DNA of 64,000 nucleotides from Nostoc sp. DedSLP01 (GCA_034530875.2 JAVRCJ020000003.1:32001-96000), one strand, 5' to 3'. Numbered from the stretch's first letter, positions 56,015-59,803 are shown. Notes: generated from the sequence alone by a model not told the origin. Program-made: numbers and translations.

Positions 56015-56404
56015 ATGAGAAATAAACTATTGTTTGGCGCCATATTTATGGCAACTTGGGTAGGAACATTAATCCCGAGTGCTTTTGCGGCTTCACCTTG
56101 TTCTGTGGGACAAAAAGCAGAGGTTTTTTGGAAAGATACATGGTATGCAGCAACAGTCTTAGAAGTGAATGACGATCGCTGCTATATTACCTACGATGGT
56201 TATGATAGTTCTTGGGATGAATGGGTTGATTCTTCACGCTTTCGGGTATCTTTTGAAGTTGGAGACGCAGTACAAATTCTCTGGAAAGGTAAATGGTATG
56301 CAGGGAAAATTTTAGATGTGAGTGACAATCTTTATAAAATTACTTATGACGGTTATGATAGCTCTTGGGATGAGTGGGTTGAACCTGCACGAGTAAGTAG
56401 ATAG
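56015..56404 (+). CDS. Secreted protein with two Tudor/Agenet-like repeats
   Basis: Signal peptide ending AFA; two copies of W...WY.A.(V/I)L.V....Y.ITYDGYDSSWDEWV. Confidence 0.8.
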   Translation: MRNKLLFGAIFMATWVGTLIPSAFAASPCSVGQKAEVFWKDTWYAATVLEVNDDRCYITYDGYDSSWDEWVDSSRFRVSFEVGDAVQILWKGKWYAGKILDVSDNLYKITYDGYDSSWDEWVEPARVSR

Positions 56405-56427: not shown

Positions 56428-56463
56428 CAAAGGGACGATTTCATTTGTAGAAGTCGTCCCTTC
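56428..56463 (+). terminator. Probable intrinsic terminator
   Basis: AAGGGACGA...TCGTCCCTT hairpin followed by a T-tract. Confidence 0.55.
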
Positions 56464-56552
56464 AATTTTTTTATAATTTTTTCTATTATTACTTGTTTAG
56501 AGGCTGGTAGACTGAGAACCATAAATAAAATTCCGTATATTTTGGCGAATTT

Positions 56553-56930
56553 ATGGAGCCAGTATCACTAACAGCAGGTGCGATCGCAACCTTGGTCATC
56601 ATCAAAGCTTTTGAAAAAACTGGTGAAATCATCGGCGAAAAGGCTTGGCAGGAAGGTGAAAAGTTATTTTTACTCCTAAAGCGCAAACAACCCAATACGG
56701 CAAGTGCCATTGAACAGGCTCAAACACAACCTTTAAATTATGGTCAGGCTTATCTGATTGGACAGCAAGTAGAGGAAGCAGCAAAGAAAGATCCTGAAAT
56801 TGCTCAAGCGGTGGCAGCTGTAGCCAATGAGGCACAACCTCAACTGACGAACACTATTATTGAAAATTGGCAGGGGATAAACATTAAAGGTGGAACTAAT
56901 ACTATTTCTGGCAATACCTTTAACTTCTGA
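56553..56930 (+). CDS. Small helical Bell/HeLo-like protein with C-terminal N/G/T-rich amyloid-like motif
   Basis: MEPVSLTAGAIATL...GEKAW...DPEIA helical region; tail QGINIKGGTNTISGNTFNF. Confidence 0.6.
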   Translation: MEPVSLTAGAIATLVIIKAFEKTGEIIGEKAWQEGEKLFLLLKRKQPNTASAIEQAQTQPLNYGQAYLIGQQVEEAAKKDPEIAQAVAAVANEAQPQLTNTIIENWQGINIKGGTNTISGNTFNF

Positions 56931-56990
56931 CTACAGTCGCCCGAACAGGAACGGGTAAAGTCAAATCCTTCTACTGAAATACCGCAAAAT

Positions 56991-58703
56991 TTGCCCCTGA
57001 GTGGGGTGGTGGAATTTATCGGACGCGAAGAAGAATTGCAAAATCTCCACCAACTTTTGCAGGATAATAAACAAGTAGCTATAGCCGCTATTGCGGGGAT
57101 GGGTGGAGTTGGTAAAACAGAACTCGCCTTGCAATATGCCATCCAGCAACGCGAGACTTACAAAGGTGGGCTTTGCTGGTTGTTACCGAAAATTGGGGAT
57201 GTGGGCATTCAAGTTGTGCAGTTTGCCAGAACGCAGCTTGACTTAAACCCGCCAAAAGATTTTGATTTACTCGCTCAAGTGCAATACTGCTGGCGGCGTT
57301 GGCGTGGTGGTGAGGTGCTGCTAGTGTTGGATGATGTCAGCGACTACGAGGAAGTTAAGCCTTACTTCCAGTCGCTACCTTCTCGGTTTAAAGTGTTGAT
57401 GACTACGCGCCAGAAGTTGGGACGCATCGCACAGTTATCTTTGGATGTGCTGCAACCAGAGGCGGCGCTGGAGTTATTAAGGTCTTTACTCAAGGAAACA
57501 CCAGAGCGAATTGAGCGAGAATTAGCTTTAGCAAATCAGTTGTGTGAGTGGCTGGGATATTTGCCTTTGGGTGTGGAATTAGTGGGGCGCTATCTGGCGC
57601 GGAAACAGGATTTATCTCTAGCAGAAATGTTGCGACGGTTGCAGAACAAGCGATTAGATGAGCGTTCCCTGTCTAAATCTAAGTCGGAAGCCGACATGAC
57701 AGCACAACGAGGTGTGTTAGCAGCCTTTGAGTTGAGTTGGCAAGAATTAGAAGACGACGATAAGCAATTGGGTTGTTTATTGAGTTTATTTGCTGCTGCA
57801 CCCATACCTTGGAAGTTGGTGGAACAGTGTTTACCAGATGAAGATGCTGAAGATTTAGAAAAAATTAGAGATGATAGTCTGCTGACTTTGCATTTACTCC
57901 AGCGCAAAAGTAAGGGAGTTTACCAACTGCATCCACTGTTGCGGGAGTTTTTCCAATATAAGCTTACAGGTTTAGAACAGGCAGAGGAATTTAAGCGATC
58001 GCTTTGTCGAGTAATGGTAACAGTTGCTAAGAAGATTCCTCAAGACCCCACCCTTGAGCAAATTAAAGATTTCACCCTGGCAATACCTCATTTAGCAGAA
58101 GTAGCTAACAATCTTATTCAATATGTGAGTGATGATGATTTAATTTGGGCATTCGTTGGTAATGCTCGATTTTACAATGGTCAGGGATTGTATGACAAAG
58201 CAGCACCTTGGTTGAAGCAGTGTCTAGAAGTTATCAAAAAACGCTTGGGAGAAGAACATCCATCTGTCGCCACTAGCCTCAACAACCTAGCAGAACTCTA
58301 CCGTTCCCAAGGCAGATACAGCGAAGCCGAACCCCTTTACATCCAAGCTTTGGCACTTAAGCGCAAGCTGCTGGGAGAAGAACATCCAGATGTTGCACTT
58401 AGCCTCAACAACCTAGCAGCACTCTACGACTCCCAAGGCAGATATAGCGAAGCCGAACCCCTTTACATCCAAGCTTTGGCACTTAGGCGCAAGCTGCTGG
58501 GAGAAGAACATCCAGATGTTGCACTTAGCCTCAACAACCTAGCAGCACTCTACTACTCCCAAGGCAGATACAGCGAAGCTGAACCCCTTTACATCCAGGC
58601 GTTAGATATTTTTGAGCAACGGTTAGGTGCAAATCATCCTAATACTATTACTGTGCGTCAAAATTTAGCATATTTGCGCGATCGCCTCTCCTCAGAACAG
58701 TAA
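56991..58703 (+). CDS. NB-ARC (STAND) NTPase with TPR repeats (bacterial NLR-like); true start uncertain
   Basis: FIGREEEL, GMGGVGKT, LLVLDDV, MTTR, GYLPL and LHPLL motifs; 42-aa GEEHP..A.SLNNLA repeats. Confidence 0.92.
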   Translation: MPLSGVVEFIGREEELQNLHQLLQDNKQVAIAAIAGMGGVGKTELALQYAIQQRETYKGGLCWLLPKIGDVGIQVVQFARTQLDLNPPKDFDLLAQVQYCWRRWRGGEVLLVLDDVSDYEEVKPYFQSLPSRFKVLMTTRQKLGRIAQLSLDVLQPEAALELLRSLLKETPERIERELALANQLCEWLGYLPLGVELVGRYLARKQDLSLAEMLRRLQNKRLDERSLSKSKSEADMTAQRGVLAAFELSWQELEDDDKQLGCLLSLFAAAPIPWKLVEQCLPDEDAEDLEKIRDDSLLTLHLLQRKSKGVYQLHPLLREFFQYKLTGLEQAEEFKRSLCRVMVTVAKKIPQDPTLEQIKDFTLAIPHLAEVANNLIQYVSDDDLIWAFVGNARFYNGQGLYDKAAPWLKQCLEVIKKRLGEEHPSVATSLNNLAELYRSQGRYSEAEPLYIQALALKRKLLGEEHPDVALSLNNLAALYDSQGRYSEAEPLYIQALALRRKLLGEEHPDVALSLNNLAALYYSQGRYSEAEPLYIQALDIFEQRLGANHPNTITVRQNLAYLRDRLSSEQ

Positions 58704-58767
58704 AATTTAAGTTCTCAACTTCATCAATCAAGGTTTTTTCTCCAACGTTCGTGTTTTGAACTCAAAG

Positions 58768-58950
58768 TTTCCTGTTCCAAACGAGAACGTTCCCGTTTCA
58801 AGTGAGAATGTTCTTGTTCTAAACGAGAACATTCCTGTTTCAAGTGAGAATTTTCTTGTTCTAAACGAGAACGTTCCTGTTTCAAGTAAGAATGTTCTTG
58901 TTTCAAACGAGAACGTTTCTGTTTCAAGTGACAACGTTTCAGTTTCGAGC
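58768..58950. repeat. 21-bp tandem repeat array, about 9 units, alternating two variants
   Basis: Units such as GTTCCTGTTTCAAGTGAGAAT and GTTCTTGTTCTAAACGAGAAC. Confidence 0.9.
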
Positions 58951-59148: not shown

Positions 59149-59589
59149 ATGACCAGGGTTTATCTAGATACCAGTATTTATAATCGTCCGTTCGATGACC
59201 AAACACAGCCAAAAATATTTCTAGAAACACAAGCTATTATCATAATTTTACAAATGGTGGAGGCCAGATTAATAGAATTAGTTAGTTCTTCAGTTCTAGA
59301 ATATGAAAATAGTCGTAACCCTTTTGTGGTAAATCAGCAATCGATGGAGCGATATTTACAAATAGCTGTCTTGAAAGTATTAGTAGATGAAAATATTAGA
59401 GGTAGAGCAGAAGAACTAGAGCAACAAGGAATTAAACCTATCGATGCACTTCATGTAGCGTGTGCAGAAGCTTCCCAAAGTAATTATTTTATTACTTGCG
59501 ATCGCAGATTAATCAACCGCTGCCAAGATTTATCACTTTTGGTAATCAACCCAACTAATTTTATTCTAGAGGTAGACAATGGAAATTAA
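59149..59589 (+). CDS. PIN-domain (VapC-like) toxin
   Basis: VYLDTS, DALHVACA and FITCD motifs. Confidence 0.88.
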   Translation: MTRVYLDTSIYNRPFDDQTQPKIFLETQAIIIILQMVEARLIELVSSSVLEYENSRNPFVVNQQSMERYLQIAVLKVLVDENIRGRAEELEQQGIKPIDALHVACAEASQSNYFITCDRRLINRCQDLSLLVINPTNFILEVDNGN

Positions 59590-59803
59590 AGTGATTAACG
59601 AACAAGAAAATTTACAAGAAGTTATGCAGGTTTTACTCACTCATTTAGAACCATCGAAGGTAATGAAATTTTGGGCTGCTTGTAAACTTAGTGAAGGCGA
59701 CTATTTGCAAGTTAAAGAAAAACTATTTGCTCAAGAAACAGTTAGCAGCTTATATGCCAAAATCAAAGAATATCAAGATGATAGTAAACGCGAAGTCTCT
59801 TGA
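59579..59803 (+). CDS. Putative antitoxin overlapping the PIN gene
   Basis: 74 aa, overlaps the toxin 3' end, GDY motif. Confidence 0.6.
   Translation: MEIKVINEQENLQEVMQVLLTHLEPSKVMKFWAACKLSEGDYLQVKEKLFAQETVSSLYAKIKEYQDDSKREVS

Follow-up and report, generated by a model that had tools for sequence, protein, structure and literature searches.

The closest described relatives of the locus reported here are gene pairs of multicellular cyanobacteria in which a Bell protein, whose C-terminal motif is rich in Asn, Gly, Ile and Gln, is encoded directly upstream of an NLR (NOD-like receptor; NOD, nucleotide-binding oligomerization domain) of the NB-ARC-TPR type (bioRxiv 10.1101/2020.01.06.895854). 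In these pairs the receptor is a separate gene with its own N-terminal copy of the motif, a bacterial amyloid signalling sequence (BASS). The screen that defined them required paired motifs, and the terms 'stop codon', 'readthrough' and 'frameshift' are absent from the accessible text of that paper. We analysed a 64,000-nucleotide stretch of Nostoc sp. DedSLP01 (GCA_034530875.2 JAVRCJ020000003.1:32001-96000; hereafter 'the window', with positions counted from its first letter) in which a Bell gene and an NB-ARC-TPR frame follow one another at 56553-58703. Here, unlike in the published pairs, the receptor has no motif copy and is joined in frame to the effector through one TGA and a short, predicted RNA element behind it.

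An ATG at 56553 opens an open reading frame (ORF) of 125 codons that ends in TGA at 56928-56930, the next codon being CTA. After the TGA, frame 0 stays open for 590 codons up to a TAA at 58701-58703, and readthrough would give a product of 716 aa. The first-pass annotation of this DNA had noticed that the 125-aa and NB-ARC-TPR frames coincide across a single TGA and had proposed readthrough. Coordinates and domain matches confirmed the arrangement, and the interpretation is supported by the sequence comparisons presented below. The first 20 codons 3' of the stop contain no stop and no ATG or GTG, again as annotated, and no TTG; the earliest possible receptor start is a TTG at codon 21 (56991), within the PQNLP lead-in to NB-ARC, and the earliest ATG, at codon 57, lies inside Walker A. 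The arrangement exceeds chance: a single copy of the 14-nt junction pattern is present in the window, where 0.01 would be expected. In the source genome (G000, 99.8% complete), where the small ORF is single-copy, 9 of 905 long TGA-terminated frames end in TGA-CTA and 7 in TGA-CTG. The junction is kept in relatives, with stop and frame conserved down to ~37% Bell identity. The features of the locus are as follows.

56553..56930, + strand: Bell-domain effector ORF, 125 aa, ended by TGA; 89% identity to RCJ33357.1, five predicted helices
56553..56612, + strand: N-terminus MEPVS and hydrophobic helix 1 (predicted helix, residues 8-20), predicted to insert into membranes
56862..56927, + strand: putative C-terminal amyloid-like signalling motif of ~22 aa, rich in N, G, I and T (predicted local distance difference test score, pLDDT, <50 at residues 103-125); recurs in the NLRs of relatives
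56928..56930, + strand: in-frame TGA, the putative readthrough codon, conserved across loci
56931..56938, + strand: 8-nt spacer CTACAGTC, conserved at the nucleotide level
56939..56956, + strand: predicted pseudoknot stem 1, 56939-56943 with 56952-56956 (5 bp, 8-nt loop), from covariation and RNAalifold
56947..56969, + strand: predicted pseudoknot stem 2, loop 56947-56950 (AGGA) with 56966-56969 (TCCT), from covariation
56931..58703, + strand: 590-codon extension comprising linker, NB-ARC (~57027-57701, Walker A at 57096-57119) and TPR sensor (~58092-58622)
56430..56462, + strand: terminator-like hairpin, a consensus match only, that would close the upstream gene and set the module apart

We consider it highly probable that the conserved UGA undergoes programmed readthrough, probably with insertion of tryptophan, brought about by the spacer and the predicted pseudoknot. 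This reading draws on a comparison of homologous loci, 105 of which were gathered by protein homology alone and 102 kept after removal of three duplicates. A locus was classed as in-frame when the frame continued for at least 100 codons, and a second motif copy was scored at a local alignment score of at least 35. Sixty-three loci were in-frame, 62 with TGA and one with TAG (L075); the receptor of the latter starts at an ATG of its own and carries a separate motif copy, which makes this locus an ordinary pair. None of the 62 receptors behind an in-frame TGA carries a second motif copy (scores 12–25; 14 for the window receptor), which bears out the earlier claim that this receptor lacks one, and the 5' core of the element is present in 61 of them, L031 being off by one base. 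In the separate-gene class, whose 31 loci include broken or unrelated cases (L047, L082 and L335), the motif copy was found in 23, the stops were TAA (17), TGA (9) and TAG (5), and the element occurred once, in the frameshifted L019. Eight loci had no downstream frame. The readthrough-type and two-gene layouts are thus mutually exclusive. A tree of 56 Bell domains contains nine layout changes, at least six of them forced by strong branches, which may reflect repeated switching or recombination. In two of the two-gene loci, L002 and L003, the receptor's own motif copy is followed by a stop-less relic of the element (with both stem-1 arms in L003), which suggests that they derive from a readthrough locus.

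The first-pass annotation had allowed that orthologues might carry a sense codon at the stop, that the frame of the spacer might not be conserved, or that the receptor might initiate on its own. No such sense codon was found, neither in the 63 in-frame loci nor among cyanobacterial matches in GTDB, and the frame is maintained, linker lengths differing by whole codons. A conserved independent receptor start is absent: across 95 unique NB-ARC loci the first ATG, GTG or TTG falls at 31 different positions, 45 loci lack all three ahead of the GR lead-in of NB-ARC, ATG is missing upstream of Walker A in 69, and in nine all three are missing there.

The stop is followed by an 8-nt spacer and a predicted two-stem pseudoknot starting at +12. 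In 27 junctions found by homology 97.7% of stem 1 cells were paired, none of 500 shuffles reached the structure's score, and RNAalifold returned the same stem 1. With 125 unique junctions the top pairs by corrected mutual information were 13-28, 15-26 and 20-42. In a set of 53 dereplicated junctions stem 1 was 99.2% paired with double-sided changes, in a region partly shaped by search patterns that did not themselves demand complementarity. Stem 2 joins positions 20-23 of the loop to positions 39-42 of the tail, columns that the search patterns did not fix; in the same set it was 83.5% paired, with double-sided changes at all four pairs and no equal in 500 shuffles. At 64 of 69 unique loci both pairs that the pattern left free are complementary, whereas shuffling gave 32 ± 3 (maximum 44 in 2000 shuffles); all of these shuffle tests disregard kinship and hence are not probabilities. 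The window's own stem 2 has A-U where most loci show G-C. G-U pairs are tolerated, which argues that the element acts at the level of RNA.

Silent sites are under constraint. Of 46 junctions, 40 have G as the last base of the second codon after the stop, as compared with 23-27% of the genome's Gln, Lys and Glu codons, and 45 have CG as the last two bases of the third codon; the proportion of synonymous differences was 0.17 in the element and 0.28 and 0.37 in its flanks (16 full-length orthologues). A ratio of nonsynonymous to synonymous rates (dN/dS) of 1.5 for the element was discarded, having arisen from mixing in a short-linker variant. A possible outer helix, in which columns 1-5 would pair with 32-36 across the stop, was 83.8% paired, with 11 of 500 shuffles as high and little covariation, and is not relied on. 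Rfam returned seven matches at E values up to 10, all far below the gathering score. We regard a covarying element of spacer and pseudoknot as likely. The TGA-CTA context, which the first-pass annotation had singled out as the leaky signal, is indeed present, CTA being the commonest codon 3' of the stop (35 of 46 junctions), but it would be one part of a signal to which the spacer and the predicted pseudoknot have to be added.

Scanning GTDB with the motif alone gave 121 loci, comprising six chance matches in other phyla and 115 genuine matches across 18 named cyanobacterial families (three records lack a phylum label). At least 100 codons are open downstream in 114 of the 115, and a Bell profile matches upstream in 99 of the 121. 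We estimate ~310-390 matching stretches in GTDB as a whole, chance matches included. A pattern that left the stop free gave 121 GTDB matches, 84 with TGA, four with TAG and 33 with a sense codon; all 33 are non-cyanobacterial, without Bell, and attributable to chance, so that each of the 88 genuine matches follows a stop. A full GTDB scan for versions with TGG, TGC or TGT gave ten matches, none of them cyanobacterial. In metagenomes 35 of 36 matches had TGA, three of these with an early downstream stop, and one had TGT; a narrow TGG pattern found nothing there. TAA precedes the element in none of the 88 GTDB and none of the 36 metagenome matches. A covariance model found at least 22 matches in at least 15 of 151 genomes of the phylum, with 40 candidates scored per genome; each of the 22 coincides with a TGA that is followed by an open frame, and 20 have a Bell match. 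The element was not found in viral contigs, nor in a weak search of 121 actinomycete-class and 121 Chloroflexota-phylum genomes (50 candidates per genome, no positive control).

Motifs, effectors and sensors of many kinds are connected through this one element. Upstream tails are highly varied, and of 27 downstream frames 24 match NB-ARC or TPR, one NACHT alone and two nothing. At L139, L142, L401, L404, L416 and L420 the upstream proteins are larger, lack an amyloid-like tail, presumably are alpha/beta-hydrolases, and lead into NACHT-like frames; L139 gave PADLOC matches, and L416 has TGT at the stop position. At L006, L017, L062, L105, L119 and L182 the frame behind the element encodes a protein with hydrophobic segments and no NB-ARC, which may be a membrane sensor; that of L105 matched no Pfam or NCBIfam family. 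Tandem copies of the module are separated by ~5 kb in Scytonema hofmanni and by ~6 kb in a further contig of cyanobacterial origin, and others are found on two Acaryochloris plasmids (tandem and plasmid copies: L171 and L172; L083 and L099; L095 and L126).

By homology the 125-aa ORF is a Bell protein: it shares 111 of 125 residues (89%) with RCJ33357.1, the orthologue at L040, which is named as a Bell protein in the Fig. 1C legend of bioRxiv 10.1101/2020.01.06.895854. The features given there for the family, in the text accessible to us, are a helical domain of ~100 aa in a protein of 120-140 aa, a hydrophobic first helix and an acidic residue at position 2 or 3; the window ORF has 125 aa, Glu2 and a helical domain with a hydrophobic first helix. 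Its N-terminus, MEPVS, fits the 'MEPIS' region described for Bab (bioRxiv 10.1101/2024.11.07.622273). An AlphaFold2 model (mean pLDDT 67) has helices across residues 8-105 and a low-confidence tail. Comparison of this model with known folds gave a best Foldseek E value of 0.99 and a best VIA-align Z score of 4.5 (root-mean-square deviation 3.7, 92 residues aligned), and no solved relative was found by sequence or by fold; Bell folds are described as widely variable in the accessible part of the Bab paper. Searches of Pfam, PADLOC and NCBIfam gave nothing above cut-off. HetE-N is present on 20% of the Atlas cluster of the ORF, and a HetE-N search of the source genome gave no match. Across 30 orthologues the Bell dN/dS is 0.14.

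The tail of the ORF is rich in Asn, Ile, Thr and Gly, matching the published description of BASS motifs, which are stretches of ~25 aa with many Asn, Gln, Gly, Ile and Val residues that an effector's C-terminus and an NLR's N-terminus have in common, and it recurs at the N-terminus of separate NLRs (L002, L003, L004, L075, L077-L079 and L081). Since in two-gene relatives such as L002, L003 and L077 the same motif is paired at the effector's end and the receptor's start, we class the tail as a putative amyloid signalling motif of the BASS type. The second frame matches NB-ARC (PF00931, E = 4.7e-16, residues 33-257) and TPR families; its dN/dS is 0.22 over codons 14-380 against 30 orthologues, and by this measure the receptor frame is under purifying selection. 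The receptor's TPR units (window 58260-58600) are near-identical to one another at the DNA level, as expected of a rapidly reshuffled sensor.

We propose the following course of events. The pseudoknot, placed at the entry channel for mRNA, would slow termination by release factor 2 (RF2), and near-cognate tRNA-Trp would decode the UGA; in E. coli the residue placed at UGA is nearly always Trp (PMC11126739, accessible part). If readthrough is rare, as we assume, a minority of ribosomes would continue, and one mRNA would yield free effector together with a rarer effector-motif-receptor fusion. Upon sensing of an invader the fusion would oligomerize through NB-ARC, its clustered motifs would act as seeds for the same motif in the pool of free Bell protein, and helix 1 would be released into the membrane, killing the cell and protecting the filament. 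The steps of oligomerization, seeding and membrane damage are modelled on experiments with Bab/Agp and BASS systems, membrane damage and cell death on activation being reported, in the accessible text, for Bab (bioRxiv 10.1101/2024.11.07.622273). As the motif is encoded once, the motifs of effector and receptor would always match.

Two natural fusions are consistent with this scheme. P0003 (NCBI, Nostoc sp. CALU 1950) and P0002 (Logan) are proteins in which the two parts are fused with Trp at the position of the stop; both are known from the protein alone, and P0002 may stem from a code-4 gene call. An RNA-library contig of a relative covers 56508-57502 with the TGA unchanged, which fits a single unedited message and proves neither the single message nor the lack of editing; this one library (run X1) is the RNA evidence over the junction, a second run (X2) not covering it. 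A further contig of this library, with a loose end at 56938, holds another junction, in which the linker is the same but the upstream tail differs and the stop context is TGA-CTG.

We lean towards a broader view, held with less assurance than readthrough itself, that the element is a portable readthrough pseudoknot of multicellular cyanobacteria, previously undescribed and convergent with the retroviral gag-pol signal, and that it represents a third layout of immune genes, in which one gene yields both killer and receptor. It may also be a switch: any weakening of termination, through stress, infection or the supply of release factor, would raise receptor output and so arm the cell.

Several observations weigh against readthrough driven by the pseudoknot. 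No fusion protein, ribosome trace or reporter signal has been seen. In a reporter study in E. coli local folding energy was unlinked to readthrough, and the weak base named at +1 was G, not C (PMC11126739, accessible part). Folding of 48 nt from the window was no better than that of shuffled sequence (z = -1.0, in a model that excludes pseudoknots). The loci are related by descent, and their counts overstate independence. Of 55 loci with an in-frame TGA that were found by homology, 15 have a linker whose shortening breaks the canonical stem 1, and still they keep stop and open frame, which indicates that the knot is not universally required. These 15 (L031-L035, L038-L042, L048-L050, L055 and L060) are close Nostoc orthologues with a short linker, in most cases shorter by 9 nt, and include L040, the locus of RCJ33357.1; they retain the TGA together with 12-15 nt at the beginning of the element, and an alternative pairing from near +9 looks possible in them. 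Finally, the element also stands behind effectors without an amyloid-like tail (L139 and L142) and ahead of proteins that are not NLRs (L062 and L105). The first-pass annotation had seen compatibility of motifs as the purpose of the arrangement; the single motif copy on which this was based is real, yet because the element also follows tail-less effectors, matching of motifs is not its only use.

A different mechanism would be restart, in which ribosomes would terminate at the UGA and reinitiate at the next codon (CTA, CTG, GTG or ATA) or at a later TTG or GTG to make a headless receptor, with the element tuning the coupling. This would account for the shared frame as well, the codon after the stop has the form NUR (R, purine) in 44 of 46 junctions, as would also suit weak restart, and 86 of 95 loci have some ATG, GTG or TTG before Walker A; the missing Shine-Dalgarno sequence before the TTG at 56991 means little, since the Bell ATG lacks one as well. 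We nevertheless judge restart unlikely. CTA, the commonest codon at this place, is a very poor start codon; CCA or CCG stands behind the stop in L083, L361 and L363, each with at least 500 open codons; and the scatter of first starts, with none before Walker A in nine loci, offers no common site. A headless receptor would moreover have no motif with which to seed, yet the effector motif is retained, and the natural fusions exist. These fusions carry Trp, which would also suit editing of the RNA, by which a structure-guided adenosine deaminase would change the stop, UGA or UAG, to a codon for Trp in a fraction of the mRNA. Only TGA and TAG precede the element, each a single A-to-G change from TGG, and the stop can pair with downstream bases through the weakly covarying outer helix. 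The absence of TAA, however, fits readthrough equally well, TAA being the tightest stop; the covarying stems lie 3' of the stop rather than across it; bacterial TadA acts at a UACG motif, outside which the target A would fall; and the stop was unchanged in the RNA contig, which would hide rare variants. Editing therefore seems to us very improbable.

That one element is joined to many effectors, motifs and sensors, with layouts that switch at least six times on the Bell tree, could also be explained if ribosomes hopped over the stop, or if the element were a recombination site that shuffles effectors and sensors while the receptor is rarely made. We give these ideas very little credence: no conserved, matching take-off and landing codons are visible, G-U pairs and the loop-tail stem indicate RNA, and the receptor frame is under purifying selection and open for at least 100 codons in all but one of the 115 genuine matches. 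A UGA closely followed by a stem-loop is the layout of a bacterial selenocysteine insertion sequence (PMC7026636, accessible part). For the source genome selenocysteine can nevertheless be regarded as refuted, unless the required genes lie in unassembled DNA: SelA is absent from this nearly complete genome, neither SelB nor tRNA-Sec was found over cut-off (seven weak matches to the latter are Ser, Gly and Tyr tRNAs), TAG is used at four loci, and the fusions show Trp, not Cys. Some members of the family are broken alleles (L047, L050, L063 and L410), as a strain-specific nonsense mutation, a sequencing error or a chance match of frames would lead one to expect, but conservation of the stop over 18 named families and the lack of any cyanobacterial sense-codon version in the full GTDB scan refute such an origin here. 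A suppressor tRNA was rejected, there being no tRNA with a UCA anticodon in the source genome, as was a +1 frameshift of the RF2 type, since the conserved open frame is frame 0. Programmed readthrough of the UGA thus remains the explanation that we favour.

The idea that the prfB gene for RF2 shares the UGA-CUA context failed in the source genome, whose prfB site is TGA-CGT. Directly upstream of prfB lies another RF2-like frame, which lacks the GGQ motif (G000:C5:131032-132054, - strand; L355:2770-3792). It has a CTT-TGA site of its own close to its start and, internally, a TGA in frame that precedes CTA or CTG; this internal site was seen in 9 of 13 loci, as TGA in five (the source genome and L426-L429), TGG in two, TAC in one and CTG in one, and L426 carries a further stop. 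The frame may be either a paralogue in decay or a further case of recoding, and readthrough of UGA could in principle be influenced by an RF2 that lacks GGQ.

Two loci, L047 and L050, have a Bell frame interrupted by internal stops, with the junction and a downstream frame of 759 and 215 codons, respectively, persisting. At L335 (G229:C9:53380 onward) a Bell domain is fused to helical repeats, which we take to be HEAT-like, in one frame of 717 codons with no stop; this locus was rejected as a fixed form of the window locus, its Bell domain being fused to other repeats. In the neighbourhood of the window locus, 56015-56404 encodes a small upstream protein that has two Tudor/Agenet-like domains and, probably, a signal peptide. 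Directly 3' of the receptor gene lies a degenerate tandem repeat with a period of ~21 nt and several open frames (58755-58950), and further downstream (59149-59803) a PIN-domain gene overlaps a 74-aa ORF, possibly as a toxin-antitoxin pair.

If our interpretation is correct, a family of hundreds of loci shares a 42-nt element that can be tested in a reporter, and whether bacterial ribosomes respond to readthrough knots of the retroviral kind becomes a testable matter. It would account for the many cyanobacterial Bell proteins that seem to lack a motif-matched receptor, the published example included, and would imply that the annotated starts of these receptors are wrong. Encoding the motif once would be a simple way of keeping two diversifying amyloid motifs compatible, and the element offers an expression part for two proteins at a fixed ratio. 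Our literature search, with most subscription journals outside its scope, found no paper on this junction and no structured readthrough signal in bacterial chromosomes. In their accessible parts, PMC7159879, PMC8195603 and bioRxiv 10.64898/2026.01.04.697583 do not contain 'readthrough' or 'stop codon', and PMC7918605 does not mention cyanobacteria, Nostoc, TPR or NB-ARC.

Among known systems, the Bell/BASS-NLR pairs are the nearest: the paper's Nostoc example, RCJ33357.1, is the 89% identical orthologue of the window effector, and relatives with the same motif use the two-gene layout. The antiphage system Bab/Agp of E. coli (bioRxiv 10.1101/2024.11.07.622273, from whose accessible text 'stop codon' and 'readthrough' are absent) shares with our locus a Bell-related effector, the 'MEPIS' first helix and switching through a shared amyloid motif, and it provides the experimental basis for the killing step proposed here; it differs in having two separate genes, a BASS11 motif and a TPR-GreA/B-PIN sensor, with no NLR. 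All-in-one NLRs combine effector, NOD and repeats in one polypeptide, a layout that the readthrough product would share and of which P0002 and P0003 are fixed fusions, but they make no pool of free effector, whereas the window locus would make both forms.

Among recoding signals, and within the accessible parts of the sources, the likeness is closest to that of Moloney murine leukaemia virus gag-pol (PMC13517186, PMC7026636), in which a stop is followed by an 8-nt spacer and an H-type pseudoknot that begins at +12 with G, and in which a short product and a long fusion co-assemble through their shared part. The cyanobacterial element differs in lying on bacterial chromosomes and plasmids, in using mostly UGA, and in having a smaller, predicted knot of ~31 rather than 50 nt; no sequence homology is claimed. 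The context of UGA with CUA or CUG is the type II context of alphaviruses. Bacterial ribosomes are known to read through stops to give extended proteins in phage Qbeta A1, for which the table in PMC7026636 has no determined downstream structure, and in B. subtilis SacB, which in that 2019 review table is the only cellular bacterial gene with functional readthrough. These are single genes, whereas the cyanobacterial element is portable and covarying and occurs across a class of immune genes. The locus belongs to the Bell family, stands outside the two-gene BASS layout and likely works in the manner of retroviral gag-pol readthrough.

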